Shown here in pieces: positions 34,671 to 62,866 of a stretch of DNA of 64,000 bases. This DNA is from Nitrospirota bacterium (lineage in GTDB: Bacteria > Nitrospirota > UBA9217), in contig DASPSR010000061.1 of NCBI GenBank assembly GCA_035623825.1, positions 1-64,000 of the forward strand. Direction: 5' to 3'. The notes under the pieces were generated by a model. That model did not search any database and was not told where the DNA came from. It saw nothing but the letters and a program-made list of their open reading frames with translations. Every line of letters begins with the position of its first letter. Within the stretch, counting starts at the first letter, position 1. Both the position numbers and the translations under genes were made by a program.

Positions 34671-36764
34671 TCAATGCCCCAAGGTGTCGCCGGTGACCTC
34701 CCAGATCTGATAAATGGGGCTGTAAAGAACAAGGGGTTGAAAGTACTTCCTGTCCGGTTGGTGCCGTACAAAGAGCTTATGGAACACTGAGTTGGTGAGC
34801 TCCGGGAGCGTGAGCACTGCTAAACGGCCTGGGAAGAAGATGTCCAATTCAGACCCCGACTCTCGGTACTTCTGAGTACCTTCATATATCATATTTCGGA
34901 AAAAGGCCTGGCTCAAGTTGACCTGACTCGAGCTGACCGTGGCAATCCCAATTTGCAGGTCCGCCTCTAATCCGCCTCCGCTTATATTCTGATCCGTGCC
35001 ATTCACCTCCTGAAAAACGAGGTAAGGTGCCACGTCGTTCCTCAGATGCCCAGGACGCCAAGTGCCCGGACGGTACCAGCCATCAAACGAACGCAACAGG
35101 CTGAATTCAAGAAAGAGAAAAATCCTTCGGTTAGATTGCGGAAAGAGGAATGACTCCCAAGATCGGCTACCGGCCGGAGGCTCTTGCAATCCTGCGGTTG
35201 CAATGATTTGACCGGCTTTGGAAGGACCTGCAGCCAGGGCTTCTATTAATGTGTCAAACTTCTTGGCTGGTCCCCCCGATCGCGCCCAAAAATCTATCAG
35301 CCCCTGCTCTCCCCGGTTCGCGTAAAATTGGATCCAATTCGCAGCCAGTCGAAAATCATCAGTGGCAAAAGGAATTGCATTGGCCACCACTGCCTGTCCG
35401 TTCCCGCCAATGCCTCCGTCCGCAACAGGTGTCCTTCCCGACTCATAGGCGACGGGATAGCCCACGCTCCAACCGCACCAGATCAAAGAGCCCTCGGGTG
35501 TGAGTTTTCCCACCTTCGCGATCCCCTCCATGATCTGCGGATCAACATAGGGCCAGATAACGCCGACGGGGATTTGATTGATTAAAACCAGACCGGTTAT
35601 TACTCCGGCGGCGGCGGGATCGGCCCAACGCCAGGGGGAGGCAGCGAAGCGTTGCCATACCTCGGATACAAGGACTCCTGAGCCGAGTGCCAGGAGGGGA
35701 GACAAAAAAATTATAAATCGCTGCCCCGTAAAGAATATCAAAACCCCAATCGAGGCGAGGGGCAGCAGTACGATCGCGTCGCGCCACTTTTTTCGCAGAA
35801 TAAGCACTACGCCAAGAACTCCAACCAGGAACCCGACAACGCTGCCGCTTGTCATGCGCGCAATGTAGGTGAAATCATGCTTCTCCAATTCCGACAGAAA
35901 AAGGGATGGGCTTGGAAACGGGCTTTTTTCGCGGACAAAGACAACATCAGAGAGAATTTTGATCTGCTGGAGCAAGCCTGATACTCCATAGATCGCGATC
36001 GCGGCAGCCAGAATGATCCCCGATGAAAAAAGCAGCCACAATTTCCTCCTGTTGAGTGATCCTTCAGAGGTTATTAGGGAGAGGACAATAGGTACGACTG
36101 AAAGGTACACGACCATAATAGCATTGGTATCCCAGGACCAATAAAGCAGACAGCCTAATCCAGCCAAAAAAGTCGAGAACAACAGCACTTTTGCCATATC
36201 GCGCTCACGAATACGTAATGATGCCCAGGCAATCCACAAGCTCAATGGGACTATCAGACAGTCGGTATCATAAAACGCGAATCCTGACCGGTACACCCAG
36301 AGAGGGGCCATAGTTCCGATTAGGCCGGCGAAAGCGCCTGCAATCCAGCTACCTCCAACATCCGCTGCAAGGAGATAGAGCGGGATTGCCGCCGATGTTC
36401 CGAGAACAACAGGTATCCAGGCGGCACACCATTCAAGGGACACCCCAGTCACCCTTGACAACGTAGCAGCGAGTAACGAAAGGAGAGGCGACAAATACGG
36501 AAACGGTTCCGGATCGTTGGCGACGACATCAGATCGGCCGGCTTTTCTTTCGTTCATATCCCTCGCCAGGCCCAGATAGTGATAACCGTCGCATTCTCTT
36601 AAAACCGGCGACCCTTTGTAAAAAGCCTGTTCCGGGGCCTTCTCCCAGGCATGCCAGACGGATGCTCGCTGTCCGGCTCCCGCAGCCAAAATTCCGATAA
36701 GACACAGAACAGGCAGCGCTCTCTGCAGGAGAAACGTTCCAGTGAGGTCACTTTTCTTTATCAT
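34671..36764 (-). CDS. STT3/PglB-like GT-C glycosyltransferase (oligosaccharyltransferase-like)
   Basis: DGYHYL, YRSGFAFYDTD, SELE, QRFIIFLSP, IWCGWSVGYP...TPVADGG; about 11-13 TM segments plus a periplasmic domain. Confidence 0.8.
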   Translation of the reverse strand: MIKKSDLTGTFLLQRALPVLCLIGILAAGAGQRASVWHAWEKAPEQAFYKGSPVLRECDGYHYLGLARDMNERKAGRSDVVANDPEPFPYLSPLLSLLAATLSRVTGVSLEWCAAWIPVVLGTSAAIPLYLLAADVGGSWIAGAFAGLIGTMAPLWVYRSGFAFYDTDCLIVPLSLWIAWASLRIRERDMAKVLLFSTFLAGLGCLLYWSWDTNAIMVVYLSVVPIVLSLITSEGSLNRRKLWLLFSSGIILAAAIAIYGVSGLLQQIKILSDVVFVREKSPFPSPSLFLSELEKHDFTYIARMTSGSVVGFLVGVLGVVLILRKKWRDAIVLLPLASIGVLIFFTGQRFIIFLSPLLALGSGVLVSEVWQRFAASPWRWADPAAAGVITGLVLINQIPVGVIWPYVDPQIMEGIAKVGKLTPEGSLIWCGWSVGYPVAYESGRTPVADGGIGGNGQAVVANAIPFATDDFRLAANWIQFYANRGEQGLIDFWARSGGPAKKFDTLIEALAAGPSKAGQIIATAGLQEPPAGSRSWESFLFPQSNRRIFLFLEFSLLRSFDGWYRPGTWRPGHLRNDVAPYLVFQEVNGTDQNISGGGLEADLQIGIATVSSSQVNLSQAFFRNMIYEGTQKYRESGSELDIFFPGRLAVLTLPELTNSVFHKLFVRHQPDRKYFQPLVLYSPIYQIWEVTGDTLGH

Positions 36765-36794: not shown

Positions 36795-37849
36795 TTACAT
36801 GGGAAAAGCAGGAACTCCTTGCTTTTGGAACCTGACCAGATAGAGCAAGATCAGCATTGGAACCAGATACTGTCCGATAACGACCAATGCGAGGTCAGTC
36901 TTCTGTAGCATTGTGAAATGAAACAAAGCCATAAGCGCATTGTCGATTCTATGAAACAGATGGATCAGAAACAGGACGCCGATGCCGCTCCAAGGAGACG
37001 GATCCTTTGTCGCCAGGGTATCGAGGAGGCGGCAAGAACCAGAGAGACGGCGATGACGATACTGAAGGTTTCATAGTACACCGCGGTTTCGTGCGCAAGC
37101 CCTGCAGGACGGCCGAACAGGGATAATCCGAAGACCATCAGCCGGTCAAGGAGCAGTATATATCCATGATTAAGCCTGAGCCAGACCAGGAATACGATTG
37201 ACGAAATCAATCCAAAGCGGGTCAGCAAACCCGTCGTGTCCGGTGACGAGCCCTCCCTTGTTCCACACCTCTCGGCAGATCTCATCCAGAGGATGCAGCA
37301 TGAGAGCACAAGAAGCAGGGTAAATACCTGACCAAGATATACGTGGGTCACATCAAAGAGCCGGATGTCATATCGGCTTATGACGAACGTAGCCACCAGC
37401 CGGAACACGTTGCCTAGATACAATACGGGGATTCCCCAAGCCAGGGCCGTCCCCTTTTGCCGCCACGATGAAGGATGAAACGCCACAAAGCAAACGAAAA
37501 GGATTGACGCGAAAATGGGCGTGCACTCAGGAATGATCCGGACAGCCAGTCCATTTTCTGAAACCACGTCGCCGGCAGTCGAAGCGGTAAAGCCCATGGC
37601 ATTCAGTACCAGACCAAGCATGGAGGCGGTATGTTCGTTAAAGGGTCTTGTAAACGACGACGGCAGCGCGTGAATGAGCGCATAGAGGCCGATACAGGCA
37701 AGGGTGAAGGCCGCGATTGCACGCAAACGGCCATAACGTGCCGCCTCCAATACGGTATTGTCCGGTGCATCCTCTCTGATGACGAGTGCCCTTTTTTTGT
37801 CGCGACGATGTCTTGATTTTCGCTTACCCATTATCGTCCTGGGGGTCAC
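36795..37849 (-). CDS. xrtH: Exosortase H-like protein with a C-terminal membrane extension interrupted by a 1-nt frameshift near 36987
   Basis: Catalytic triad IPECT / GNVFRL / THVYLGQ; adjacent IPTL-CTERM substrate. The ORF stops at 36965 but another frame continues GIGVLFLIHLFHRIDN...IGQYLVP to TAA 36795. Confidence 0.75.
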
Positions 37850-41286: not shown

Positions 41287-42324
41287 ATGAACAAAACACC
41301 GTATATCATTTGTTTGATACTAACCCTCATCTGGCCTGCGCTTTCCTTTGCCGATCCCGTTCCCGTGGATATGGATATAGAGGCGAACGGGAAGGGGAGT
41401 TTCTTGCTGACGGGAGGAAGTGTCGCAGGCGTTCATGACATTGATATCGAGATAGGTTATGATCCCAACTTGCTGGAGAATCCCCACGTGCAGATAGTTC
41501 ATGGAGGAGATCTTATACGGGCAAATGGCGCCTCACCGGGAAATCTGCTCATAAATATTGGCAGGCCATCTGCAGATCCTTTACTCCAGGTCATTATTAA
41601 CTTCGATGCAAAGACGGATCAGGAGGGCGGCGTCTATTACATGTCCGCGACTTCCAGACCCAAGACTGAGAGCAAGGCTGAGGAGCCATCTGGGCACGAT
41701 AGAAACACGGGAACGGTCGGGATTTCTGTACTGAAAGGAGCAGCTTCATCGTCGGGCGCCGATAATAACGTTCTGATGGAAGAGATGGCGGCCCTTACGC
41801 ATGATGAAAAGAACGTATTGCAGCGATTCAAGCAATTCAAGGGGAAGAAGGGCCTCAGGTCTTTTACCGCTCTGTTCGGCAGGGGTGCCGGCGACAGGTT
41901 TGTGCAAGAGCCGGCAATTGCGATCTCTGATGGGAAGACGCCGGTTACGGTCAAGATGCAAGTGCCGCCGGAAGGATCCCGGACTGCAGGGATCGCTCTG
42001 GCCGATGCGTCACTCATATCGAAAGAAGAGAACGGAAAAGGCGTAGTCATCACTGTGCTGCCGAGCGAAGGGACATGGAACGCGAGGCTGGTCATGGTGT
42101 CAGGCCAGGACGTACTGGGCTGTCCGCTTGTCGTTGCCCCGCCAGTGAACATAACAAACGGTATCGATGAAAATAATTTTCTTGATGCGCTGCAGGCATA
42201 CATTAGCAGTCAATCACCGGCATTTCAGCAGGCTGACAAAATTTACATCTCAGAGTATATATTCACCGCCAATTACCTTGCCGAGATGCAGAAGAAGGCT
42301 CGATTGGCTGTCTCGCAGCACTGA
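41287..42324 (+). CDS. Exported protein with a cohesin-like N-terminal beta-sandwich
   Basis: Signal peptide; VAGVHDIDIEIGYDPNLLENP resembles cohesin; C-terminal YIFTANYL. Confidence 0.7.
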   Translation: MNKTPYIICLILTLIWPALSFADPVPVDMDIEANGKGSFLLTGGSVAGVHDIDIEIGYDPNLLENPHVQIVHGGDLIRANGASPGNLLINIGRPSADPLLQVIINFDAKTDQEGGVYYMSATSRPKTESKAEEPSGHDRNTGTVGISVLKGAASSSGADNNVLMEEMAALTHDEKNVLQRFKQFKGKKGLRSFTALFGRGAGDRFVQEPAIAISDGKTPVTVKMQVPPEGSRTAGIALADASLISKEENGKGVVITVLPSEGTWNARLVMVSGQDVLGCPLVVAPPVNITNGIDENNFLDALQAYISSQSPAFQQADKIYISEYIFTANYLAEMQKKARLAVSQH

Positions 42325-42488
42325 TCAAAAAAGGCGAGGTGATCGAGCCGTCTTCAAGAAATTGGTTCCGGAGGAACTTGGAGGAAGAAGGCGCCTGTTC
42401 ATATGATTGGGGAATCGCGCACTGGACTGAAACGTAAGAAAAATAGCAAAGGCTTGACCAAAGGGTTTAGAAAAATAAGTTTCCAAGA

Positions 42489-42543
42489 TTTCATTTAATC
42501 TTCTTTGAACTGTAATTAAAATGTAACATTCATTGTGTATAGT
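42489..42543 (+). promoter_or_regulatory. Pho-box-like array plus -10
   Basis: TTTCATT-taat-CTTCTTT-gaac-TGTAATT-aaaa-TGTAACA-(9 nt)-TATAGT. Confidence 0.7.
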
Positions 42544-42639
42544 CGGTGCAGTGATGAAGTATAGAAGTTTGAACGGGACGTTACCCCGTTTCCTCTGATA
42601 TTCAATTAAACATACATAACTGAATAACAAACGACTGTC

Positions 42640-42687
42640 AGGGTCCTTTGCTGACCGATAGAATTCTTATCGCGCACCAGAAAGCCC
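42640..42687 (+). ncRNA. Unrecognised leader RNA motif, copy 1
   Basis: AGGGTCCTTTGCTGA-c-[CGATAG-aattc-TTATCG]-cgca-CCAGAAAGCCC. Confidence 0.65.
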
Positions 42688-42732
42688 GAACCGATGATGA
42701 TGCTTCCATATCCCGGTTCGGGCTTTTTTTTT
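42681..42732 (+). terminator. Intrinsic terminator within the leader, overlapping motif copy 1
   Basis: AAAGCCCGAACCG-20 nt-CGGTTCGGGCTTT, ending in a run of 9 T. Confidence 0.85.
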
Positions 42733-42738
42733 CGGTTC

Positions 42739-42776
42739 AGGGTACTTGGCTGGCCTGTAAAGGGAACAGAAAGCCC
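42739..42776 (+). ncRNA. Unrecognised leader RNA motif, copy 2
   Basis: AGGGTACTTGGCTGG-[CCT-gtaa-AGG]-ga-ACAGAAAGCCC. Confidence 0.55.
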
Positions 42777-42924
42777 GGATCACTGGCCAGTCGCACAACA
42801 GTGAAGTTTTCCGGGACGAAGCGGCTGGTCAAATAATCCAAATAAGGAAAGGAGGGCAAAAAAACAGAAGGGATTCACTGCATCGATAAAAAAAGAGCGG
42901 ATGCCGGCCCGAGGCCGCATCCAG

Positions 42925-43015
42925 CCTTCGGTACAAAGCCAAAATCCGGGTAACCGGATGACGGAAAGCCATGCGGGTCCACAAGAAAAGGTGGATGGCC
43001 GGGTTGCCTGAGGGG
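42925..43015 (+). ncRNA. c-di-GMP-I (GEMM-I) riboswitch
   Basis: G-CC-AAA-ATCCGG-gtaa-CCGGAT-GACGGAAAGCC...CGGGTCC...GGATGGCCGGGTTGCC matches the GEMM core (GNRA-capped P2, GACGGAAAG junction, P3); G at the position-20 equivalent (42938). Confidence 0.85.
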
Positions 43016-43167
43016 AAGTACCTGCCCGGCGATTTAAACAAAAGCCTGTGGGGCGCCAGTTCGCGCAGCGAATCGGGCGATAAAAACCATAGAATGTGGA
43101 AAAAACGGAAAGGCCGTTGGGCAGCGAGAATCAAGTTACCCAAAATCACTACTCAGGAGGAGAGAAA

Positions 43168-43950
43168 ATGAAGAAGATCATGATGCTTCTAGTGGTCGCC
43201 GTTCTCATGCTCGGCGTGAGCGGACAGGCCATGGCGTATTTCACTGATGGCGACTTGATCCGTGTCGTGTATTCCACTCGAAACGGCACGGGCTATGAGT
43301 ATGCCACAGACCTGGGCTCACTTTCTGCCTTGGGGTTATCGAGTACTGGAGGAGCATATACCGGCGGCCCCCAGACTATAAGCACCAGCAATTTCGGCAT
43401 ATTGCCGGGTCAGACTACCTTCAGCAATATGTATGTTACATACTTTATTGCAGACGCTGCCCTGAACAGCGGCAACGGTGCAGCTTGGACAAGCGGCCAT
43501 ATGACAAATAGCGGTTATTTCCTTCCGAATGGGGCAGCCAGTTTCTTTACTGCCACGGAGGTTCCCATGGCACTTTGGAACAGCGTGGGTACTATAAGCA
43601 CTCAGAACGCTCAGATCGAGTCTACAGGGTCATCCTTCTGGGTCAATGCCGAATCAAGTGGGGCAACCCTCGCTACTTATCTGGGTTTCCTTGATAACAC
43701 GAAGCAGCTCAGCGAGGAAAACCTGACGCCACTCAATACGACCGGCGGGACTGTGGATCAGCTCCTGTATTACTACGGCTCCAACCTAAATGCCGGAGGT
43801 CGGGGCACGGCTGTCGCTGAGATCGTAACCAATGCCAACGGATCCACGACCATCGAGGGAGTTGCCGCGACACCGATTCCGGCTGCGGTATATCTCTTCG
43901 GCTCCGGTCTGCTCGGCATGTTCGGCCTGCGCAGGAAAATGGCTGCCTAA
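43168..43950 (+). CDS. VPLPA-CTERM (PEP-CTERM-like) sorted surface protein
   Basis: AGGAGG SD; signal peptide; Ser/Thr/Gly/Asn-rich body; tail TPIPAAVYLFGSGLLGMFGLRRK. Confidence 0.9.
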   Translation: MKKIMMLLVVAVLMLGVSGQAMAYFTDGDLIRVVYSTRNGTGYEYATDLGSLSALGLSSTGGAYTGGPQTISTSNFGILPGQTTFSNMYVTYFIADAALNSGNGAAWTSGHMTNSGYFLPNGAASFFTATEVPMALWNSVGTISTQNAQIESTGSSFWVNAESSGATLATYLGFLDNTKQLSEENLTPLNTTGGTVDQLLYYYGSNLNAGGRGTAVAEIVTNANGSTTIEGVAATPIPAAVYLFGSGLLGMFGLRRKMAA

Positions 43951-44135
43951 GCGGTTGCTTACAACTTAAACATCGAGGAATGAAGCCGTCTTTGATTGCG
44001 ATTTTTGAGGCCGTCATTTCCGGCTTGAACAGATGCGACAGGTGTTACCATTGAAGCGCTCGGCAATGACGAAATGCACTTGAAAAACAAATAAAGAAGT
44101 AAATCTTGAAGCGTGTAAATAAGGAGAATAACGAC

Positions 44136-45425
44136 ATGAAGATCAAAATAATTGCATTGCTTATTGCTGTCGTCAGCCTCTTCCCGTTCGTGGGAACGGC
44201 TTCGGCAGCCTCCTGCTTTTCTACCGGCGTCTCCGGAGCTCCGGCTGTTCCCCAGGGAGATCTGAATATTTACGGAGCATCCGCCCAGTTTACATTCTGG
44301 AAGAACGAGTTCGTGAATTACCTGACAGCTGCAGGCTGCACGTGGGCAAACGGCACCAGCTGGGCCCAGTCGCAGGCGACGGACAGTGCTACCAATCCGT
44401 CTCACTATGTTATACAGGCGAATTGCTCTGCTGTCGGCGGCCCCGCGGTTGTAAATTTCCGGGTTTCTTCCAAGGCTTCCTATGATGGCCCGGCTGCGGT
44501 CGACGCCCAAGTTACGCCTTACTCGGTTAACAACTGCGGAGTAGGAGCAAATGCAAATCAGAGGGAATTGCTCCACGGCGGTACGGTAGCCTGCCCCTGG
44601 GGATCCACAAGCTGTCCGGCTCCGGCTGCCGCTAACGGGGACTGTGAGGTCGTTACCTGGGGCTCCGCTGATGTCGCGGTGGGAGACTTTCAGCAAATTA
44701 CAACCGGTGCGTCCGGACGCAACTTTAAACTTAATCCCTTGGTTATGTCTGCTAATACGGTTGATTTCTGCCACCCGAATGCAATTGGCTTTGGTTTTTG
44801 GGTGAACAATAGTGTTACGACGACGGCCGGACCAATTATCAGCAACATCCAAGCGCTGGAAGCAAGGATGATCTATTCGGGTAAACTGACCAACTGGAGT
44901 CAGCTTGCCTCCACTTCCATGAACGCTGCGCCCATCGTAGTATGTTCAAGAACGGCTGGTTCTGGAACGGCCGCATCATTGGACTTTCAGATTGTGAGGC
45001 CATCCTCAATCATCACGACTCCGCTTGGAAACGATAAATTTAACGACTCTACCGGTAACGAGGTCACTTGCGTGAGCTCAAACGCCGGCGCTATCGGTGT
45101 TTTTGACGCGGACCGGAGTGTCGCGGGACTCAATATAAGCGGGCCGCTCTCAGTCAATGGTATTGCGCCAAGTACGGCGGCTCTTGAAGGCGCAACCTAT
45201 CTTTACACTGACGGTGCTCAGCATGCATATGTGTCGCTGGCTAATTCGGCAGTGCCCTGGATCAATGATGTATGCCTTTGGGCTGGATGGCCAGCAAGGC
45301 TCCCCAGTGCTACCTGGGCCTCCACGTGCAATATGAATTACTTGCCAGGGGGTAATGGCGCTGGCAGTCTCGCCGCATGGGCGCCTTCTACCGTTAAGGG
45401 TACCCTTGGATGCACTTGCCCGTAG
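44136..45425 (+). CDS. Secreted Cys-rich PstS/DING-like substrate-binding-fold protein
   Basis: IYGASA, IYSGKLTNWSQL, SRTAGSGT and GAIG motifs typical of the PstS fold; signal peptide; 14 Cys. Confidence 0.75.
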   Translation: MKIKIIALLIAVVSLFPFVGTASAASCFSTGVSGAPAVPQGDLNIYGASAQFTFWKNEFVNYLTAAGCTWANGTSWAQSQATDSATNPSHYVIQANCSAVGGPAVVNFRVSSKASYDGPAAVDAQVTPYSVNNCGVGANANQRELLHGGTVACPWGSTSCPAPAAANGDCEVVTWGSADVAVGDFQQITTGASGRNFKLNPLVMSANTVDFCHPNAIGFGFWVNNSVTTTAGPIISNIQALEARMIYSGKLTNWSQLASTSMNAAPIVVCSRTAGSGTAASLDFQIVRPSSIITTPLGNDKFNDSTGNEVTCVSSNAGAIGVFDADRSVAGLNISGPLSVNGIAPSTAALEGATYLYTDGAQHAYVSLANSAVPWINDVCLWAGWPARLPSATWASTCNMNYLPGGNGAGSLAAWAPSTVKGTLGCTCP

Positions 45426-45529
45426 CAGTAGCAGATTGTTCTTCCCCTCGCCTGTGCCATCCTTTGGAAGGCTGGGTGAGGGGGCCACTTGCCTCGCAGG
45501 AAAAGGCATCATGAATGAGAGTGGTCTTC

Positions 45530-45558
45530 GCGGGGTCCCTTGTTGGGGCCCCGCTTTT
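45530..45558 (+). terminator. Intrinsic terminator
   Basis: GCGGGGTCCC-ttgtt-GGGGCCCCGC-TTTT. Confidence 0.8.
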
Positions 45559-45752
45559 AATTTTTTGGAGTGCGATCGTCAAACAGCGATCGCGGAGCCC
45601 TTAAAATTGAAAAGGTAATATTTATTGTCGAGTTTTGCCGAGCTGGATTCTTGATCGCAAAATTATAAATAACAATTTGTTAAACCGTCAATATGAAAGT
45701 GGCGCTTAAGAATATTCTTTACAACCAAGAGATGAAAGAAGTCTTTTAAAAT

Positions 45753-45818
45753 CTTCATGGAATCTTAATAGGTTTGTAACCAAACTAAAATGATTCTGTA
45801 ACAAAAATCATGTAAGCT
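45753..45818 (+). promoter_or_regulatory. Pho-box-like array (5 positions) plus -10 for the TPS/TonB operon
   Basis: CTTCATG-gaat-CTTAATA-ggtt-TGTAACC-aaac-TAAAATG-attc-TGTAACA-(9 nt)-TAAGCT. Confidence 0.7.
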
Positions 45819-45835
45819 CAGGCATACAAAATACA

Positions 45836-45888
45836 AGGGTACTTCGCTGAATTGATGTTCTTTCGATGCATCAATTACCGGGAAGCCC
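45836..45888 (+). ncRNA. Unrecognised leader RNA motif, copy 3
   Basis: AGGGTACTTCGCTG-[AATTGATG-11 nt-CATCAATT]-a-CCGGGAAGCCC, about 10 nt after the predicted transcription start. Confidence 0.65.
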
Positions 45889-46305
45889 ATGACGAGTCCA
45901 CAAAACCCGTTCGGCTTCCTAAAAAAATATTACGAACGGGGCATATGACTTCCCCCCTGTTTTAATAATACCCTTGTTTATTTTTCCAATGAGTGCCTGA
46001 CATAGCCGGTAATTATTGAGTGGACAGAGAGAGCAATTATAGAAATCAACTGGCATGCACTCAACGTAAAGTCACGGGATGAATTACGCAGTCCGAAGAT
46101 AGCGAATGTGTATCGACACTTTTATTCCGTCCGTGGGCAAAATTGTACATGTGGCGAGACAGAATAAAAGGTGAAGTTTCCTCTTTCTTTCCGGCTATTT
46201 GGTTTTTTTAATGTCGCCGGAGCCCAAAAAAAATTTTAAGCGTCATTCACAAACAGCATTATCTTGCTGTTTACGATTCTAAATGCAAGTCGCGAGGTGC
46301 CGGTC

Positions 46306-47367
46306 ATGGAAAGGATAACAAAACTCAGCGATGCAATCAGGAAGCTCATGGAAGTGGAATTCAGCGGCTACATAAAGATCAATTTCAGCCAGGGAAGTAT
46401 TGGGCGGGTCGAAAAGTCCGAGGAGTTTGAGGACACGGCAATCCTGATTACGGGAAGGGACAACGGGAAAAAGAGCGGTCTGGGAGGGCAGGTCAATCAT
46501 GAAACCCTCAAGGCCGTACCCATTATGCTGTTGCTGTCCATTGCCCTTGCTGGCTGCGCCGCTTCAGCAAAAGTCAGGCCGCCTCAGCCCGCAGGGGAGT
46601 CCGGGAACGTCAGGGTTGTCCGGTCCGGAGATGTTGCGGACATCCGCTACCTTTGCCGTCTCAAATCAGGAGAGGTCGCGGCTGCAACGGACCCGGTTGC
46701 GGAAAGCCAGCCCAAGTCGAATATTTATGAGAAACGGGAGGAGACCGGCCCCCTGTCAGTTCAGGCAATCGGCGCCGATGAGGCAGATCTGACGGCAGGA
46801 TCTCCCTTCACTCAACCTTCCTTCGAAGAGGAAATCCAGTATTACCTTGGTCGGACGATCATTGGCATGAAGCAAGGTGATAAGCTCACGGCAGAGCTCA
46901 AGGCTAAGGACTCGCAGTCAAGGGTACACGAGGAATATATCTTGCGCCTCAACCGTGTCCGCACACATCCCAAATTGATGGTAATGCAGAAACACACCTA
47001 CGAGTACGCGACAAAACAATCTCCTGAGATCGGACAGGCATATACCTACGACCCCGATTTTCCCGGCAAGGTGGAGTCGATTTCGGACGAGGGTGTAACG
47101 ATCAGGATCATGGTGACGCCGGGAGCCGTTAAAGAAACGCCCTTCGGTTCTGGACGATACAGCGAGGATGGCGACAACTACAAAATGGAGATAGATGCGC
47201 GTAAAGGAGCGCTCATCCGCATGGCTGGCCTGGTCGGACGGATCGTTTACGTTGATGACAAGGCATTTCACATAGATTTCGGCAACCCCTTCGGCGGCGA
47301 AACGCTGATCTGCGATGTGACGGTGGAAAAAATCGCGGAGGAGAAAACAGCGAAGAGCGGAAAGTAG
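46306..47367 (+). CDS. FKBP/SlyD-like peptidyl-prolyl isomerase lipoprotein fused behind a small DUF2292-like domain
   Basis: IIGMKQGD, IDFGNPFGGETLICDVTV; internal lipobox LAGC; N-terminal FSGYIKINFSQGSIGRVEKSE. Confidence 0.75.
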   Translation: MERITKLSDAIRKLMEVEFSGYIKINFSQGSIGRVEKSEEFEDTAILITGRDNGKKSGLGGQVNHETLKAVPIMLLLSIALAGCAASAKVRPPQPAGESGNVRVVRSGDVADIRYLCRLKSGEVAAATDPVAESQPKSNIYEKREETGPLSVQAIGADEADLTAGSPFTQPSFEEEIQYYLGRTIIGMKQGDKLTAELKAKDSQSRVHEEYILRLNRVRTHPKLMVMQKHTYEYATKQSPEIGQAYTYDPDFPGKVESISDEGVTIRIMVTPGAVKETPFGSGRYSEDGDNYKMEIDARKGALIRMAGLVGRIVYVDDKAFHIDFGNPFGGETLICDVTVEKIAEEKTAKSGK

Positions 47368-47373
47368 CGGCAT

Positions 47374-48957
47374 GTGAAAATAACGGATCTGCGACTCCTC
47401 CACGCGATAGTGATGATCATTGCATATGCGGCTCTCCTGTCCCGCCCGTGTTGTGCGGGGGAAGCCGGCAACACGGGATTCGAGATCAAAGCATTCGAGG
47501 TCACCAGTAACACCCTGATTCCCGATGATAAACTGCGCAGCGCGGTTGCCTCTTTTACCGGGGTAGGAAAAACAGCGACTGACGTGGAGAACGCGCGGGA
47601 CGTCCTGGAGAAACTGTATCACGATGCCGGCTATCCCACAGTGATAGTGAACATTCCGGAACAGACCCTGCAGGACGGAATCGTCAAACTGCAGGTCATC
47701 GAAAGCAGGGTAGGCAGGATCAGGGTTACGGGCAACCGGTATTTCACCATAGAGAAGCTGTTGAAGGACTTGCCTTCCCTTGCTCCGGGCACGATAATTT
47801 ATCTGCCGGATGTTCAGAAGGAGATTGGACGTCTGAATGCAAGCCAGGACATCAAGGTCGATCCCATCATGTCACCGGGCAAGGAAGTCGGGACCATCGA
47901 CGTGGAGCTCAGGGTAGAGGATCATCTCCCGCTGCACGGTTATCTGGAACTGAACAACCGGGCGAGCCCGAATACATCGCCGCTGCGGCTGAATGCGCTC
48001 GTCCACTACGACAATCTCTGGCAGCAGGAGCATTCTCTCTCCCTCCAGTGCCAGGTAGCGCCCGTGAACCCGAAAGACGCAAAAGCGCTTGCCGTTTCTT
48101 ACGCTATTCCGGCGCCATGGCAGAAGGAAGACCAGGTAGCCCTTTACGGGGTATGGTCGGACAGTAATACGGCATTCGGCGAGGGATTCAGGGTTATTGG
48201 AAAGGGACAGATATACGGCATACGCGGAGTCACCACCCTGCCACCGTACAAACTCTATGCCCATGCCGTGACCTTGGGTGTCGATTACAAACATTTCGAT
48301 CAGGGCGGTTTCACAGGGGCAAGTGGCCCGATTTCGTATCTGCCTTTTATGGTTTCGTATAGCTCCTCGCTTCCCGATACTTGGGGAGGGATGACCCAGT
48401 TCGGTGTGGGATTGAACTTTTCACTGCGTGGAGTAGTCTCGAATGAGAGTGAATTCGAGAACAATAGGTACCAGGCAATGGCGAACTATGTTTACGTCGT
48501 CGCGAGCATTACGCGTACCCAGAAGCTGCCATGGGGAATGGGTCTCCTCGTGAAGGTGGACGGACAATCCGCCAACCAGCCGCTCATCGTCAACGAACAG
48601 TATCTCGCCGGCGGCATGGAAAGCGTCCGCGGTTACAAGGAAAACGAGCAGGCTGGTGACAACGGCATGCACGGGATGATCGAGCTTTCCTTCCCGGACC
48701 CTTTCGAGAAATCCTCTGCGGCGAAGTTGATCCATATGAGTCCCTTTCTCTTCTATGATTTTGCCGCTTTGACCATTATCGACCCGCTTCCCACCCAGGC
48801 TGAAAAAATCAGGCTTGCGGGCACCGGCGCGGGAGTGCGCGGCCAAGTCTGGAAGCATCTCGAATATGAAGTAGACTGGTCTTTGGCCCTGAAAGACACG
48901 GACATAACGAAGAGAGATGACGAACGAGTGTATTTTATAGTGAAAGCGGAGTTCTGA
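47374..48957 (+). CDS. ShlB/FhaC/HecB-family two-partner secretion transporter (TpsB)
   Basis: POTRA motifs LEKLYHDAGY and IPEQ; GGMESVRGY; C-terminal Phe. Confidence 0.92.
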   Translation: MKITDLRLLHAIVMIIAYAALLSRPCCAGEAGNTGFEIKAFEVTSNTLIPDDKLRSAVASFTGVGKTATDVENARDVLEKLYHDAGYPTVIVNIPEQTLQDGIVKLQVIESRVGRIRVTGNRYFTIEKLLKDLPSLAPGTIIYLPDVQKEIGRLNASQDIKVDPIMSPGKEVGTIDVELRVEDHLPLHGYLELNNRASPNTSPLRLNALVHYDNLWQQEHSLSLQCQVAPVNPKDAKALAVSYAIPAPWQKEDQVALYGVWSDSNTAFGEGFRVIGKGQIYGIRGVTTLPPYKLYAHAVTLGVDYKHFDQGGFTGASGPISYLPFMVSYSSSLPDTWGGMTQFGVGLNFSLRGVVSNESEFENNRYQAMANYVYVVASITRTQKLPWGMGLLVKVDGQSANQPLIVNEQYLAGGMESVRGYKENEQAGDNGMHGMIELSFPDPFEKSSAAKLIHMSPFLFYDFAALTIIDPLPTQAEKIRLAGTGAGVRGQVWKHLEYEVDWSLALKDTDITKRDDERVYFIVKAEF

Positions 48958-49192
48958 TGTCGCTGAAAATATTCGGCTTAGGATCAGCGATTGCAATCCT
49001 CGATTATATACAGGACTTATGCGTCCTGTATTAAAGGTATCAAGAAAAATGGTTTATCCGATAAGCAGTTTTCCGGTCCGGTCTGTCGCCGGACTGGGAT
49101 GATATCGTTTGTACTCCAGGAGTGATCGGTTCCAGGCCGCGACTGCGGATTCGACTGACGTCATCCGCGATGGAATCCTTGGAGGGGAAAAT

Positions 49193-52100
49193 ATGAAGAC
49201 CGGTGTTTTTCATAAAATGCTCGGGCTGCTCTGCTGCGCGTCGCTCCTCTTTCCCCAATACGCCCTGGCAGGCGGCGTTAACATACCCGGTTTTACGGGC
49301 GTGGTTACGCCCCGCTCAACTGTGGCCGCACCGGCCCCTGCGCCCGCTCCCGTCACGGTCAATATACCCGGCTTTTACGGACCTGCTGTTACGCCTCCAC
49401 TGCCAGCCCAGTTACCGATTTTAAAAAATGTCGTCCAGGGGGCAACGGTTGAGTCCCCTTTGAATAACCAGCTTACGATTGATCAGACTCAGCAGCAGGC
49501 CATCATCAACTGGGCATCCTTCAATATCGGTGCTGCTGCCTCCGTCACATTTAACCAACAGCATCAATCGGGCTGGGTCGCCGTGAACAGGATTTGGGAC
49601 GCAAATCCCACGCTCATCTTCGGGAAGCTCTCGGCGGACGGAAAGATCTATCTGATAAATCAGAACGGCATCCTCTTCGGCCCAGGCTCGAAGGTGAATG
49701 TCAACGGCCTTGTGGCATCGGCACTCAATATCAAGGACAATGATTTTCTCAACAACGTACTGAACTTCACGGCTATGGATTATCAAGGGTCAATCCTTAA
49801 TCCTGTTCAGAATAATCCGAATTACCTTGCGGCTGTCTCAAACCTCGGGGAGATAGACACCGCGGACGGAGGATACGTCTTTCTCATTGCTCCCCGCGTG
49901 GACAACTACGGCACGATCAATGCGCCAGCTGGCCAGCTTGGCCTCATCGCAGGAACGGACGTAAATTTACATGCCTCGCAAGGTACCAACCCCGCACAAA
50001 CCTATGTTGTCATAATCAATGATTCCTTCCTCACGTCGCCAAAGAGCACTGATGCCAACTTCGGCCGCGCGGTGAACGGGGACACGGGCAAGCTGAACGC
50101 AGACGGCGGTGTTGCCGGCATGTACGGTAACAACGTCGATCAGTGGGGTGTCATCCGCTCCGTAACGGCTTTCAAGAACAATAAGGGCTACGTGGAGCTG
50201 ATGGCAGCGAACAAGATCACGACAGGCGCTGACAGCAGCATCATGCTTCCGGTCGATAATGAAGTGGACCCGACGACCGGCTTGCCACCAACAATCAGCG
50301 AAACATTCGACATCCAGCCAACTGTGTTCATAGGAGGTTTAAACGGGACTAACGCCGCTGCAACGCAGATCGATCTTGGGGGGAAAATCGTTGCCCCCGC
50401 AGGACAAGTTACACTGAGAGCCGCCAATCAAGTAGCCATGGAATCGGGCAGCGGCATTGACGTAAGCGGGGTCGTGGCAGACCTTTCTGTAGCCGTCATC
50501 ACTGCAAAGCTGAACAGCATAGAGCTTCGGGACGATGACACCCAGAAGGGCGGGGTCCTGCAAGGGCAGAACATTACAACCCCTGTAACGGCGGGGTCCA
50601 CAATAGGCAATCTCTCGCAGGACCTGCTGACGCAGGACAAGACGGCACAGGAACGGCTCATCGGAGGCGATATAAGAAAGGTGGCAGTGCAAAACTCAAG
50701 TACTGGCCAAAGCAGCTGGTCATACAACTCCATAACAGGAAACATCAGTGTGAATGTGGCGAGCGGCGATATCATCGTCAAGCAAGGAGCCTCCCTCAAT
50801 TTTGCCGGTGGGGAGATCAATTATGTTGGCGGCCTGGTGAATTCGACGAAACTGCTTTCAGGCACGACCATTTACGACATAAGCAATGCCCCCGCCAATA
50901 TCCAGTATGATCAGATCCTCGGAAATTATGTGAAGTCATACGCCCGGTTCGGTATGCAGCAGTCCTATACAGGCCTTTATTATGGCGGGGCATCTCCGGC
51001 TATGACGCACGAGACCGGCTACAGCGTAGGCGGCGATGCGGGCACGCTTTCGCTTTCAGCAACCACGATCGTCCTAAACGGTCAGATAAACGGCAGTGTG
51101 AATCGCGGCACGTATCAAAACGCCTGGACCACGTCAGCTTCGTATTCGTCTTCTGCCGATTATTATGAAGCGCTTATGCTTTCAAAGGCTGAGGGGCTCG
51201 AAACACCGCGAGCAGGAAATCTGACGATAAACGCATCGAATATCTCGGTTGTTTCCGAAACTGATACTCAAAACGATATAACGCCGGCGACCACTTCGCT
51301 GCTCTCGGCTAAGACCCTGAACAATGCAAACTTGGGCACACTCGGTCTCACCGCGGATCTGACCATTTCGACAGCTGCCGATGCCGCTCTTGCGCTTCAG
51401 CCGGGCGGGTCATTCACAGCGCAGGCAAGACTGATCAGTTACGAAGGACAGATCACGGTCCCGGGAGGGAACATTAATTTGTACACCGTGCAGAATTCAA
51501 CGAGCTATCGTGACACAAGTGGCAATCTCAACTCGAACTACGTAGCCCTCCCCAACGGCCTCACCGAGAGGATTGTTCTCGGGAGTAAAAGCGTTCTTGA
51601 CGCATCCGGGCAACGGATCGATAACAGTCAGACCGGGACAGGAAATGCCGTTACGACTCCCGGATTTACGAACGGAGGGAAAATATACATCGAGGATCAG
51701 ACGGACCTGGGTGCCGGCGTCTTCTTGCAAAAGGGGGCCGTCGTGAACGTGAGCGGCGGCTATTCTATCGACCAGAAGGGCAAGGTCACAGGAGGAAGCG
51801 CAGGGGCCGTAATCATTCAGGGGGCGAACATCGAACTTGACGGATCTCTGCAGGGGTACGCATTGGCTGATCCGAAAGGAAAGCTCGCTGGAGGCGCCAT
51901 AACTCTTACATCGCTCAATGCTTCAGTGGTCCCGGCTACATCGATTCCTCAGTGGTATGATTGGAGCACTTTCGATCCTTTGAGCAGCGATTCTTCTAGA
52001 TCATCAATACCGGCTCAAATGAAAGGCATGTTCTACCTTGCTGATAACGAGTTCGGCGATACCGGCTTCACTCAGATCACGGTCAACAGCAAGAATGATG

Positions 52101-55100
52101 TCACTATAGGGAGCCCGGGGGGAGTAAATACGAATGTCGCTCCATCGTTGATCAGATCGAAGAATCCGGTAGCGGCGCAAGCGGGGTTGAACGCAAAAAC
52201 CGGGGAGCAGGAGGTCCCCGGAAATCCGAACCTCATCAGCCTCGACCCTTCCCTAGATTACATGGCCGGTCAATCGCAATTTACCGCCGCCGCAGGGGTC
52301 GCCTTTTCTTCTAGTTCAAGCGGAACAGGCTTTACAGGAATCTTAAGTCAGAATTCCGCTCCCACAACGCTTTCGGTCTTAAACGGCACGATGATCCGGA
52401 CAACGCCTGGCGGAAAAATAATCCTATCAAGCGGTGTGCCGGGAACGACAACCGGCTCGGTCATGATGGACGGGAAGCTGGATTCTCGGGCCGGAACTAT
52501 CAACGTAACGGCAACTGGCGGCAATCTTCTGATTGGCGAGAACGCTACGATCCTCGCGAAGGGGTTCAATACTCCTGATCCGTCATCAACCCCGAATGGC
52601 TTCAGCGTTAATCACCAGCCGATGAACGGCGGGAATGTTTCCCTGATTGCGACAGCTAATGGGGACCAAGCAGGAACTGGAAACCTGACCATAGCTTCGG
52701 GGGCAACAATAGATGTGTCGGGATCGGACGCAGTCATGAATACGGTCCTGTCAGGAAGCAAGACGACCACCTATCAAACAGCGGGCAATCCCGGGAGCGT
52801 CTCCTTGAGCTACGGGGGCATCCCGGTATTGGAAGGTGCCGTAGTTGCCAACAACGCGAATCTAAACGGCCTCGGAGGCATCGGCGGAGGCACACTGGCG
52901 ATGACGTATACGTACCCGCTCAATTCTCCAGGAGCCAACAACATGTCCATCGGTAGCTATATTGGCTATTTTCTTAGGGGTGGCTTCGACGACCTGACAT
53001 TCAAGAGCAATTATACTATTAGTTTCGACTCTGGCGACGTCAGCTATGTCATCCCCCGGAAACTTACCCTGGACGCCCCGAATATCATCGGCACGGGAAA
53101 CACGGTGACATTAAGCGCGGCCTGGATAGTGCTTAAAAACACTTCAACGGTTTCTCCGCAGCCCGCAAATTCAACGGTCCCAGCTGCCGGAAATTTAACG
53201 CTTTCCGGCGGATGGACCGATGCGTCAGGAATGCACAGCGGTTTTATCGATGTAATCGGAAGCATCCAGATCGACGGCTTTAAGGACGTAACGCTAAGGA
53301 CCGACCAAGACATTACCCTGAGCCAGGCATTGTACAACGACAACTTCATAGCCGGGCAACATGGAAATCCGGGAACGGTCAATCCCGGAATGCTTGGGAC
53401 AACTGGCGATCTCGTTCTTGATGCCGCCCGCATATATCCAGGCAATTACTATGAATATGACAAGAACGGAAGCAAGATGTTCCCGTATATATACTCTGAC
53501 TATACCGTGCAGGCCAATGGAAAGGTAACCCTGCAGCACACGTTCAGTAACACAGACGCTGCTGCTGACCCGCCTATCTATTCAGCGGGTGGGAGCCTGA
53601 CTATCATCAGCCGCGGTCTCAGCGGAAGCGGAGGTATCGACGTAGAACAAGGCGTGACTGTTGCAGCGCCCCTGGGGACCATCAATCTCAATGCACCGGG
53701 GAATCGAATCTATCTTGCGTCAGGCAGCACATTGACCATAGCCGCGAATGTGGCCAGTGTGCTCTATGGCGAGTTGGACCAGAACAACCTCTGGCTCGTT
53801 CCAGATAAGGCAAAGCCAGCCCCCGGCTCCGGCTCGGAATCATTTTTCACGCAAGACGCCCTTTCCAATAAAGGTATCAACCTTAATGCCGATGAAGTCA
53901 TAACCCGGCAAGGTTCCAAGATCGACGTCTCCGGCGGCGGGTCAGTATTTGCATACTCGTTCCAGCCGGGTGTGCAAGGCTCTGTTGATCCGCTCACCGA
54001 ATCCGGACGCTACGTCGTGTTTAAAGCGGATACCGTTCCGATGCCGGGAACGGATGTATACCTTCAGGGTGAGGGAGGCCTGAGCGCGGGAATGTACACC
54101 CTGCTTCCCCTTGATTCTTCCCATCCGCAAAATGCCCGGTACGCATTCATGCCCGGGGCATATATTCTCGAGGTGCAGAAGGGCGCGTCCTTGCCGGCGC
54201 AGGGAGCGCTGTCACAAGACGGCTATCCCCTCGTTGTCGGATATTCCGCCATTGCCGACACGTCGATAAAGAGCACGCAGCCTCAGGTTTACAGCGTACG
54301 TGCCGCATCCGAAGTCCTGACGACGGAGGGAAATTACGTGCAACCGGTCCCCTCTGTGTCCGGCAATGCCGGCAATATCAACATAACGGGCACTACGATG
54401 ATCCTCGACGGACAGCTTAAAGCAGCGGCATTTGACGGGTATCAAGGCGGCACGATCAGCCTGAAAGCTTCAAACATCACCGTTCAGTCGGAATCTGCAT
54501 CGCCATTGGCGGGTATACTGTTTGATTTCAATACCCCGCTGTCTAAGGTCAACAGCGGCCTCATGGGCAAATTGACCATTTCGTCTAACGGTATTACTGG
54601 CTTTCATGAAGTGGACCTCGGCGATGTGGATCAAACCGCGAAGGGTATAACAAACAGCATTACGGTAAAGGCGGGGGCGGAGCTCGATGCGGACATTATT
54701 TCCCTATCAGCGCGCGGGTCAGCGAGTTCCTCTATAACGCTTGAAGGCGGGTCCAAGCTTGTTGCAGCAACCGGAGACGGCGAGATCAATATCATTACGC
54801 CGGGTACTCTCGTTATCGGCGACAGCGGGTCCGCAGCAACCCTGCACGCCGCCCATGCGGTCAACATTACCGCGAACAATGTGACCGGGATGAACGGATC
54901 TTTCCAGTCAGAAGGAGGCGCTCTGACCTTAAACAGCAGCGCAATATTTTTCGATGACGGGACGCGCACCGACCCCGGCCTTCATTTGACACAGGCAATG
55001 TGGAACAATTTCACCGGATTTCAGGACTTCACATTGGTCAGCAACAGCGGCAGCAATGCAGGCATCCAGTTCCTGACAAGCGTCGATCTTACAGCAGTCA

Positions 55101-59737: not shown

Positions 59738-59752
59738 AGGAAACCCGGGCAT

Positions 59753-61570: not shown

Positions 61571-61571
61571 G

Positions 61572-61988
61572 ATGCGCCGCGGGATAAACCCTTATGATGA
61601 TCATGAAATTTACGACGAGATCAATGTGGTCCCCATGCTGGACCTGGCCTGGAACCTCCTTCTGGTGTTCATGATCGTCGTGACGGCGTCCGTACAGGGT
61701 ATCAGCGTCGATCTTCCCAAAGCGAGTGCGGCTGCGGGAAAGGTCAAATCCACGACGAGGGCGATCACCATCACCGCGGATGGGACCATCTATCTTGACA
61801 GTTTTCCCATGACTTTGGAAGAACTGGAGATCAGGCTCCGTCAGTATAAAGGCATGGACCCCAATTTCCCGGTGGTCATCCGGGGCGATAAGAAGATCTC
61901 CTATGAGAAAGTCATTGATGTGCTGGACCTTCTGCAGCGCTTGGAGATTACACAGCTTGGCCTGGTGACTCAGAAGCTCGTGAAGTGA
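61572..61988 (+). CDS. exbD: ExbD/TolR biopolymer transport protein
   Basis: EINVVPMLD, VDLPKA and VVIRGDK motifs. Confidence 0.92.
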   Translation: MRRGINPYDDHEIYDEINVVPMLDLAWNLLLVFMIVVTASVQGISVDLPKASAAAGKVKSTTRAITITADGTIYLDSFPMTLEELEIRLRQYKGMDPNFPVVIRGDKKISYEKVIDVLDLLQRLEITQLGLVTQKLVK

Positions 61989-62164
61989 GATCTGATACAG
62001 GATGCAAATTACAAATAAGTCACTGATTTCAACAGTAATTAAACACCATGACTTTTGGGGTCATTCTTTTGAAATTTATCTAGGATTTGAGATTTACAGA
62101 TTGTGTTTTCTGTTGCCGATCTTATTTTATCGGGAATATATAGTTTGTGATTTGAGCAAGACAG

Positions 62165-62866
62165 ATGCAGGAAAATCAAGAAAAACAGCCGATTTCCTGG
62201 CTCCTTATCGCTGTGTTCATCATTCTGGCGGGAGTGGGCGCCTATATCGTTAAAACGGTTCTCTCAGGGACGGAGCTGAAAAAGAAGGACACAACCACCA
62301 CTGTCACCTTGCTAAAGCCGCCACCGCCGATGATCAAGGAAAAGCCTCCTGAACCTGAGCCGATCAAGGAGATCCCGAAGAGGGAAGAGATCATCAATCA
62401 GGAAGTGAACAAGGAGCAGGGCCCCGAGAACGACATCAAGGACAGCACGCCTGCGGGGGACAACCTAGGCGTTGATGCCGAGGGTACAGCAGGCAGCGAT
62501 AGCTTCGGCTTGGTCGGGAAAAAAGGGGGCAGAAGCCTCATTGCCGGAGGCGGACCGGGCATTGGAACGGGCTCTCTTCTGACAAAGTTCGCCGGCTATA
62601 CCCAGATCGTGACGGTGGAACTCAGAAAAAAGGTCATGAAGCTCCTTGATGAAGAAGGCGGAATCCCCAAGGGCAAGTTTCAAGCCGTCGTCAGGGTGAG
62701 CATTGACACGAACGGCAAGGTTACTGACTACCGGATCATCGGTTCATCGGGAAACAACAAAATGGATGATGCGGTAAATCGGTCACTGCGCACATTCCGA
62801 ATCAGTGAGCCACCACCGGATGGCATGCCGCGGACGATGGATATCAAGATCATCTCTCAGGGCTGA
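62165..62866 (+). CDS. TonB/TolA-like energy transducer
   Basis: N-terminal TM, PPPP/PEPEP linker, C-terminal IIGSSGNNKMDDAV...PPPDGMP. Confidence 0.85.
   Translation: MQENQEKQPISWLLIAVFIILAGVGAYIVKTVLSGTELKKKDTTTTVTLLKPPPPMIKEKPPEPEPIKEIPKREEIINQEVNKEQGPENDIKDSTPAGDNLGVDAEGTAGSDSFGLVGKKGGRSLIAGGGPGIGTGSLLTKFAGYTQIVTVELRKKVMKLLDEEGGIPKGKFQAVVRVSIDTNGKVTDYRIIGSSGNNKMDDAVNRSLRTFRISEPPPDGMPRTMDIKIISQG

Follow-up and report, generated by a model that had tools for sequence, protein, structure and literature searches.

Between positions 42640 and 45888 of a 64,000-nt stretch of Nitrospirota DNA (contig DASPSR010000061.1 of assembly GCA_035623825.1; the whole stretch is hereafter called the window), a short hairpin-forming motif occurs three times. 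What is this motif, and what might act on it? An initial annotation had proposed an unrecognised leader RNA, either a riboswitch or an antitermination element, possibly a processive one. We describe here a bulged RNA hairpin, carried by many relatives of sulfate reducers and by Nitrospirota, that competes with intrinsic terminators in the leaders of genes for exosortase-sorted proteins, and a small protein that is tentatively put forward as its partner.

A bulged hairpin with covarying helices

The consensus of the motif was GGG-UM-CUUN-G-CUG-A-[variable hairpin]-NAM-CRG-RAAG-CCC, a hairpin of ~45 bases. In 143 distinct instances, GGG/CCC formed an outer helix (P1a), followed after the UM bulge by CUUN/RAAG (P1a′) and after a bulged G by CUG/CRG (P1b); inside P1b lay a mostly unpaired A, a variable hairpin (P2) and the 3-nt NAM linker. 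The P2 spacer ranged from 10 to 39 nt and was always self-pairing. The N-R position of P1a′ was U-A in 75 instances, U-G in 25, C-G in 20 and non-canonical in 23.

Re-reading of the sequence bore out the three window copies and their claimed consensus, all on the + strand. Copy 1 (42640–42687; “type A”, GGGUCCUUUGCUG, long P2) scored 62.2 bits with R1, a covariance model built from the three window copies, and 42.3 bits with a second model, R2. Copy 2 (42739–42776; “type B”, GGGUACUUGGCUG, short P2) scored 46.8 and 43.4 bits with R1 and R2, respectively. Copy 3 (45836–45888; “type C”, with a CGG GAAG 3′ arm and a long AU-rich P2) scored 55.4 bits with R1, and syntenic copies of it were found in four relatives (G003, G017, G028 and G035) and in locus L132. 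The arms paired as had been described and so did all three apical stems, with a GUAA loop in copy 2. A compensatory change claimed at the N-R pair was seen in copy 1 (U-A) and copy 3 (C-G) but not in copy 2, which has G.A. Folded alone, copies 1 and 3 had energies of −14.9 kcal/mol (z score −2.18) and −19.1 kcal/mol (z score −3.17). The 14-base 5′ arm, AGGGTMCTTNGCTG, occurred exactly three times in the window, and a 13-base form, GGGTMCTTNGCTG, exactly three times in the whole assembly (3.24 Mb, 67 contigs); matches to the latter with one mismatch were at chance level in this assembly (16, including the 3 exact ones, versus 20 for a reversed control). R1 found only these three copies in the genome at E ≤ 10. 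All three window copies are genuine, and chance does not account for them.

The second model, R2, included the P2 pairs and yielded an alignment (A4) of 131 hits, of which 128 were distinct. In A4, 95.2% of cells were paired versus 90.0% after shuffling, none of 500 shuffles reached 95.2%, and at most 61% were paired after sliding the partners. All four P2 pairs covaried, with changes on both sides. The U-R pair was UA in 117 sequences, UG in 10 and other in 1; that is, G-U was tolerated and its A-C complement was not. Most A4 sequences had been collected by exact pattern, so that the invariance of P1 there was partly by construction, and a second sample (A7, 70 distinct sequences) was therefore chosen by a linked small protein (see below) rather than by RNA pattern. 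In A7, 95.4% of cells were paired, a level again reached by none of 500 shuffles, and two-sided changes were present at 8 of the 14 pairs. Compensatory variants were GGA/UCC in P1a, CUCC/GGAG and CCAU/AUAG in P1a′, and CCG/CGG (four sequences) and AUG/CAU in P1b. Helix sequences were still nearly invariant, with ~25 invariant bases kept across two phyla. The A4 and A7 statistics support the earlier view of a structured element; judged from these alignments, the motif is an RNA element with covarying helices.

A search of related phyla for homologs with covariation had been proposed; such homologs were found, with compensatory changes in all helices. Among 61 Nitrospirota-side genomes, R1 detected syntenic triplets (two close copies and a third ~3 kb downstream) in G003, G017, G028 and G035, four relatives from three further genera; nothing convincing was detected in 53 of the remaining relatives, and three more had hits at E 0.1–1 only. 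When one genome per species was scanned for the exact pattern, at least 119 stretches matched, and counts out of 119 below are among the matches listed. By record titles, at least 94 of these stretches came from Desulfobacterota or “delta proteobacteria” (including Geobacter, Smithella, Syntrophobacter, Desulfosarcina, Desulfobulbus and Desulfatiglans), at least 13 from Nitrospirota, and 2 from bacteria without a phylum name; the 10 in other taxa were mostly inside coding sequence and looked like chance. Cultured carriers among the matches listed were Desulfosarcina alkanivorans PL12 and Desulfobulbus elongatus DSM 2908. Across 151 evenly sampled Desulfobacterota genomes, the exact pattern was present in 3 and a reversed control in none. 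This exact-pattern search was added because R2, run over the same 151 genomes, scored just 42 first-look candidates per genome; both gave the same 3 genomes.

No Rfam 15 family (4227 models) covered the motif. Over the whole window, the c-di-GMP-I riboswitch was the only match at gathering score; at E ≤ 10 over positions 42300–46300, only AgvB fell on the motif (18.9 bits, E 3.2, gathering score 56). In 20 other loci no Rfam family matched the motif, the matches being to the c-di-GMP-I clan and one group II intron. No model match to the EAR/epsC motif (RF01735) or JUMPstart/ops (RF01707) was obtained in the window. With nothing at or near a gathering score in Rfam 15, the motif does not belong to a named family, as the initial annotation had held. 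No description of it was found in the literature on PEP-CTERM/exosortase regulatory RNA or on structured non-coding RNA of Deltaproteobacteria; the accessible parts of PMC5737381, PMC2864571 and PMC3495685 do not mention it, and identity with Desulfotalea-1 or Rhodopirellula-1 (Weinberg 2010, no Rfam entries) is possible.

Terminator overlap in the leaders of PEP-CTERM genes

Copy 1 runs into an intrinsic terminator (42684–42732, + strand) consisting of a stem at 42684–42723 (GCCCGAACCG/CGGUUCGGGC) and nine U residues at 42724–42732, with a minimum free energy of −33.8 kcal/mol and a z score of −3.18; the same arrangement was present in four relatives. GCCC was common to the 3′ arm of copy 1 and the 5′ arm of the terminator, and the minimum free energy fold of copy 1 with its downstream sequence (−33.8 kcal/mol) was the terminator, not the motif. 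Terminators were scored elsewhere by a stem of at least 5 pairs, a U-rich tail and a 5′ arm starting within the last motif bases. By this criterion 110 of 161 distinct instances had an intrinsic terminator whose 5′ arm overlapped the 3′ arm of the motif, so that the competition with a downstream hairpin, first noticed in the window, proved general. In this terminator class the ten bases after CCC read GRAUCRAGAG, with 0.65–0.87 bits at positions 1–5 and 8, and the same leader layout (motif, terminator) was seen in 5 genomes of 4 genera. The motif and terminator folds are mutually exclusive, RAAGCCC is shared between them, and the terminator is the stabler. This is a classic non-processive antiterminator/terminator switch. 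A processive mechanism like that of EAR, put or conAn, which had also been suggested, is not supported, because the direct overlap with a terminator is as in local antiterminators; no Rfam model of such RNAs matched.

Among the other 51 instances were chance hits and members of a second class that includes window copy 2. In this class other hairpins lie downstream, followed by a Shine-Dalgarno-like GAAAGGAGG(U)G without a start codon; in the window the latter is GGAAAGGAGGG at 42846–42856 (+ strand, by sequence reading), with no start codon behind it. GAAAGGAGG(U)G recurred 30–90 nt past non-terminator motif copies in other genomes, and perfect examples also stood downstream of motifs in L089, L060, L101, L157 and L066. 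The window element recalls the mRNA-stabilising Shine-Dalgarno-like elements known in Gram-positive bacteria. Competing hairpins had been described for all three window copies. That of copy 1 is the clean terminator above, and that of copy 3 (GGGAAGCC...GGCUUCC, 45880–45919, + strand) was confirmed by folding, with equivalent pairing in relatives, as a hairpin without a U tract; the one of copy 2 is broken by AGUUUU and fails as a terminator. More generally, the CGGGAAGC 3′ arm of copy-3-type elements pairs with a downstream GCUUCC(CG), with no U tract. Tandem motif copies within one leader were observed in the window and in relatives.

The leader holding copies 1 and 2 also contains a c-di-GMP-I riboswitch aptamer (42928–43011, + strand; Rfam RF01051, 56.2 bits versus a gathering score of 35), which was absent from the initial annotation. 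An aptamer of the c-di-GMP-I clan was found by Rfam downstream on the same strand in 15 of the 20 other loci, and an nhmmer profile made from the Rfam hits placed c-di-GMP-I at most 600 nt downstream of the motif in 44 of 116 loci (among the matches listed). According to the part of PMC12530212 that was available, PEP-CTERM genes of a Methylophaga strain are preceded by c-di-GMP riboswitches. Two c-di-GMP-I-GGC variant aptamers scored above gathering (L152:870–948, 73.3 bits; L066:7181–7259, 67.8 bits), and both adjoin, on the opposite strand, genes for a Nitrospirota-type form of the small protein described below. A group II intron domain was located at L152:6916–6991.

Behind this leader lies a gene (43168–43950, + strand) whose translation has a signal peptide and the tail ..ATPIPAAVYLFGSGLLGMFGLRRKMAA, in which the C-terminal P-x-P, the hydrophobic helix and the basic cluster of a PEP-CTERM sorting signal are all present. 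The protein had no Pfam match at E ≤ 0.001, and a family member at L135 matched TIGR03370 (VPLPA-CTERM) with 27.8 bits versus a cut-off of 25.35. This ~250-amino-acid (aa) family was present in 61 of 119 loci. The first open reading frame (ORF) of at least 80 aa after the motif carried a PEP-CTERM-like tail in 67 of 135 instances and none in 52, with no ORF in 11 and a run off the locus end in 5; the rule is crude, as spurious ORFs mislabel many leaders and the 52 include evident coding-region chance hits in non-target phyla. Downstream of some Geobacteraceae copies, large proteins with a tail of the P-x-L-x-x-W-G type are encoded. The strand of the motif was constant relative to the downstream genes. 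The motif sits in leaders of exosortase-sorted PEP-CTERM protein genes, and the earlier statement that it heads surface-protein genes holds for the PEP-CTERM gene as well as for a TpsB/TpsA/ExbBD/TonB row behind copy 3.

A candidate factor and the rival readings

The motif was closely accompanied by a gene for a small protein with a core of ~50 aa (..DKLxRLxxxIxxLxxxEFTGYIKINFxQGxIGRIEKFEE.., alignment A6). The small protein and the motif occurred in the identical 3 of 151 Desulfobacterota genomes, and the protein occurred in precisely those 5 of the 61 Nitrospirota-side genomes that had strong motif hits. Of 15 further genomes with the motif, 13 encoded it, the misses being an Oryzomonas metagenome-assembled genome (G222), whose motif is convincing, and G225, whose motif hit is chance-like. 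Presence of the protein with the site and its absence elsewhere was therefore the rule, with G222 as one real-looking exception. The gene was present in 48 of 119 loci, and in 37 of these 48 the motif began 0–350 nt past it on the same strand. From a metagenome sample chosen by the protein (80 of 259 relatives, 75 with room downstream), 56 of 75 loci had the motif at most 400 nt downstream, often 2–11 nt past the stop codon. In most Desulfobacterota loci the small gene stands directly before the motif; in the window its domain lies just after copy 3, as the first ~65 residues (46303–46500; profile hit 46288–46437, 75.1 bits) of an ORF at 46264–47367 (+ strand), where it is fused to a lipoprotein. 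AlphaFold modelled the small protein as one helix and a beta hairpin (pLDDT 83.8).

The fusion partner is a lipoprotein of an FKBP-like family, joined in frame in the window and in G003 and encoded by a second, overlapping gene in G017 and G035; to judge from these sequences, the fusion hints that the products of the two genes may work together. A second small-protein gene was present in the same genome (C46:31772–31930), behind polysaccharide export genes; a degenerate motif missed by the models begins 5 nt behind it, and then come a transposase-like ORF on the opposite strand (an apparent insertion sequence) and the contig end (G000:C46:31772–32000). The ESM Atlas gave weak leads for the small protein (scores of at most 0.85). 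One of these, DUF2292 (PF10055; score 0.79, rank 15), was rejected: 6 members had no match to it at E ≤ 10, and a DUF2292 search of the genome missed both small genes.

We tentatively interpret the motif as a cis-acting antiterminator hairpin that is stabilised by the small ~50-aa protein, in leaders or spacers of exosortase-sorted protein operons, a reading about which we are slightly more doubtful than confident. By default transcription would stop, as at 42732 after copy 1. A factor holding the hairpin closed would keep the terminator from forming, and the polymerase would read on to a second checkpoint, the c-di-GMP-I riboswitch, and then into the PEP-CTERM gene. Where no terminator follows, as at window copies 2 and 3, the same change between a bound and a free hairpin would shift other pairings. 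The factor, on which we are less firm, may be the conserved small protein. It was ranked likeliest because its gene order resembles that of hutP and its phyletic match is exact, and a protein was favoured over a ligand because a small conserved gene is so tightly linked to the motif. A wider proposal, on balance rather doubtful, is that the motif is the RNA operator of an unrecognised family of very small antiterminator proteins and forms, with c-di-GMP-I, a two-checkpoint leader for all exosortase-sorted matrix proteins in Desulfobacterota and Nitrospirota; the fusion in the window could then couple envelope status to read-through.

Several observations weigh against an antiterminator held by the small protein. 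Alone, copy 2 folded at −10.3 kcal/mol with a z score of +0.30 and 118 of 200 shuffles did as well, so that energy alone cannot tell it from shuffles. At the N-R position, 23 of 143 instances lack a canonical pair, and 51 of 161 instances had no terminator by the criterion used. G222 has a convincing motif, and no small gene was found in it; in the window, no small gene precedes copy 1, and the local domain is the one fused to the lipoprotein. No Pfam or NCBIfam family matched the small protein, and its model had no Foldseek match in PDB at E ≤ 0.001 (best E 2.4), so that neither search points to a known RNA-binding family or fold. The core is only mildly basic (mean charge +1.6, about −2 to 0 in Nitrospirota-type copies). 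Finally, any gene of the cassette (such as PEP-CTERM or PBP-like) would share the phyletic pattern, so that the small protein is not distinguished by co-occurrence alone.

The motif might instead be a new riboswitch class, in which the hairpin would bind a small molecule or ion, the bound state would block the terminator, a two-input gate would be formed with c-di-GMP-I, and the small protein would be one more member of the cassette. This is unlikely, though it deserves serious attention. The core is aptamer-like, with invariant bulges (UM, G, A and NAM) and a variable apical stem; the terminator overlap is a typical expression platform, so that the conserved structured aptamer and expression platform common to riboswitches were both found. 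Tandem copies within one leader and the arrangement in series with a validated riboswitch class fit as well, and in G065 dispersed copies lie far from the small gene, with motifs near 0.23, 1.66 and 3.14 Mb and small genes at 1.66 and 6.16 Mb. The controlled genes, however, encode structural exported proteins rather than metabolite enzymes or transporters, and helices that are near-invariant across two phyla are more usual for protein recognition. The motif is also a single bulged hairpin, without a junction or detected pseudoknot, and its phyletic and positional link to one small protein is near-perfect.

A UpxY-family NusG paralog was considered as the factor as well, with the motif as its loading site (compare LoaP with its leader hairpin, and RfaH with ops) and antitermination acting on the leader terminator as well as throughout the long TpsA operon. 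In the window, tblastn fragments and three-frame translation revealed a remnant of such a gene at 46036–46231 (+ strand), with a frame change and an in-frame stop (TGA). An intact UpxY-family gene (127 bits on NF033644) stood directly behind the copy-3-type motif in G028 and L132, and another intact paralog lay in the same genome outside the window (G000:C55:66487–66990), heading polysaccharide genes. The subfamily (at least 70% identity) was confined to G000, G003, G017 and G028, with a pseudogene in G035, which are the 5 motif-bearing genomes of the 61. Nevertheless this explanation is improbable. A UpxY-type paralog was present in 8 of 10 motif-bearing genomes tested, not in all; the two Desulfobulbus genomes (G062 and G218) had one NusG-like hit each, of 48–50 bits versus a cut-off of 100, which is the level of housekeeping NusG. 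With these two genomes and the broken, linked paralog of G035, UpxY was not taken as an obligatory partner. A UpxY-type gene lay within 8 kb in just 1 of 119 loci, and a processive factor needs no direct terminator overlap. In Smithella (G063, C216:899–1399) a UpxY-family protein was 66% identical to the Nitrospirota one, and this likeness suggests that the whole cassette moved between phyla. An ops-like GGCGGTAG in the 5′ hairpin of G017 and G035 was treated as a coincidence, because it is not conserved in the window or in G028.

It is quite improbable that the motif is a factor-free attenuator set by translation, in which a ribosome ending the small ORF would cover the 5′ arm and let the terminator form, and slow or uncoupled translation would leave the hairpin to form and allow read-through. 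Many motifs do begin 2–11 nt past the stop codon of the small gene, but the spacing ranges to several hundred nt, no ORF precedes window copies 1–3 or the copies in Nitrospirota relatives, and a simple antiterminator needs no ~25 invariant bases across two phyla. A DNA operator, a repeat, or a 3′-end structure of the upstream transcript would fit the arms, which are an inverted repeat in DNA too, and the many loci that have a gene before the element and a terminator at its end, but it is very improbable given the always self-pairing 10–39 nt spacer, a U-R pair (UA 117, UG 10, other 1) that accepts G-U and not A-C, the constant strand relative to downstream genes, and compensatory changes in all helices.

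Neighbouring genes and comparison with known systems

Upstream of copy 1, a promoter-like region (42510–42543, + strand) was recognised by sequence reading, with direct repeats CTGTAAT/ATGTAAC at an 11-nt period and, 10 nt downstream, the hexamer TATAGT found by a −10 scan; its layout was kept in G017, G035 and G028. TGTAAY repeats before a −10-like hexamer, a PhoB/OmpR-type layout, were observed both there and at 45774–45816. Pho-type promoters had been claimed upstream of the copies; what stands is the TGTAAY repeats with their 11-nt period ~10 nt before a −10-like hexamer, conserved in relatives and compatible with a PhoB/OmpR-type regulator under the Pho-box rule that we assumed for this reading. 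Genes for PhoB-like response regulators were present in 7 of 119 related loci.

On the − strand the window encodes an exosortase of the EpsH family (36965–37849; PF09721, 32.3 bits versus a cut-off of 25.7), the sorting enzyme for PEP-CTERM proteins, and next to it an STT3-like oligosaccharyl transferase homologue (34671–36764; PF02516, 39.9 bits). The PEP-CTERM gene is followed on the + strand by a gene for a secreted PBP-like protein (44106–45425; Pfam PBP_like_2, 29.6 bits), whose family was found in 41 of 119 loci, and by a terminator detected by scan at 45530–45554 (+ strand). Behind copy 3, Pfam identified a row spanning 47374–62866 (+ strand) that comprises TpsB (47374–48957), a TpsA-like protein of 3542 aa with TPS and DUF3739 domains (49109–59737), ExbB with DUF2341 and LamG domains, ExbD and TonB. 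Other recurrent neighbours in the listed loci were an FKBP/thioredoxin-like lipoprotein, a PrsT-like TPR protein, PhoB-type regulators, chain-length and tyrosine-kinase export genes, and exosortase H.

Bacteria of sediment, sludge and biofilms commonly carry PEP-CTERM/exosortase systems, and to our knowledge essentially nothing is established about PEP-CTERM regulation outside the Proteobacterial sigma-54 PrsR scheme. The motif offers a concrete, testable control point for the PEP-CTERM regulon in two phyla and represents either a novel class of riboswitch or a novel pair of RNA and protein for antitermination. It also brings out a recurrent series circuit with c-di-GMP-I riboswitches, and the two cultured carriers (D. 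alkanivorans PL12 and D. elongatus DSM 2908) make bench tests feasible. Sections of Haft et al. 2006 (PMC1569441) that were available state that further PEP-CTERM regulators are still to be found. They describe the PrsK/PrsR/PrsT control as TTTACA-type repeats with a sigma-54 −24/−12 promoter ~71 nt from the start codon; PEP-CTERM genes have long upstream non-coding regions in that system, as here, whereas the control element is a pair of DNA motifs there and an RNA hairpin here.

Other readings of the motif in terms of known elements were rejected. A sigma-54 promoter in the 5′ arm has a GG-to-GC spacing of 6–7 nt, not the 10 that we take to be the consensus, and boxA-like and anti-Shine-Dalgarno-like readings of the 5′ arm match the presumed consensus sequences poorly. 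The ANTAR target RNA has a tandem pair of small hexaloop hairpins, of which the second overlaps a terminator; the motif has a single bulged hairpin, and its apical loop is variable and at least 3 nt long.

The processive RNAs (EAR, RF01735; put; and others) are likewise found in leaders of long exopolysaccharide or surface operons, but they modify the polymerase and need no terminator overlap, whereas terminator overlap was seen in 110 of 161 instances of the motif, which had no Rfam match. With LoaP, UpxY and RfaH it shares a surface or exported regulon and, in two relatives, a UpxY gene behind copy-3-type motifs; it differs in that the paralog is lacking in 2 of the 10 motif-bearing genomes tested and that no ops-like match was obtained.

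The small hairpin-type tandem riboswitches come closer in size, in the terminator-overlap platform and in the tandem or series arrangement with c-di-GMP-I, but the gene set here is non-metabolic and there is a link to a specific small protein. The RAT sites of the LicT-SacY-BglG antiterminators are short imperfect hairpins that have conserved bulges, are stabilised by a protein and overlap, with their 3′ part, a terminator's 5′ arm. The overlap found in 110 of 161 instances is a likeness to RAT in function only, since the RAT consensus, the phyla and the regulated genes differ and the loci showed no antiterminator of the PRD type; no PRD family was found in the 25 largest clusters of genes from the listed loci, not every one of which was scanned. 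HutP of the B. subtilis hut operon is a ~150-aa protein that forms hexamers, binds sites of UAG triplet repeats and probably prevents terminator formation. Its gene order (hutP, terminator, hutH) resembles that found here, with a small regulator gene first, then an RNA site overlapping an intrinsic terminator, then structural genes; here, unlike in hut, the site is a bulged hairpin and the ~50-aa core, a candidate binder only, belongs to no known family. The motif functions like the RAT/LicT and HutP attenuators and the terminator-coupled riboswitches, and is a member of none of them.

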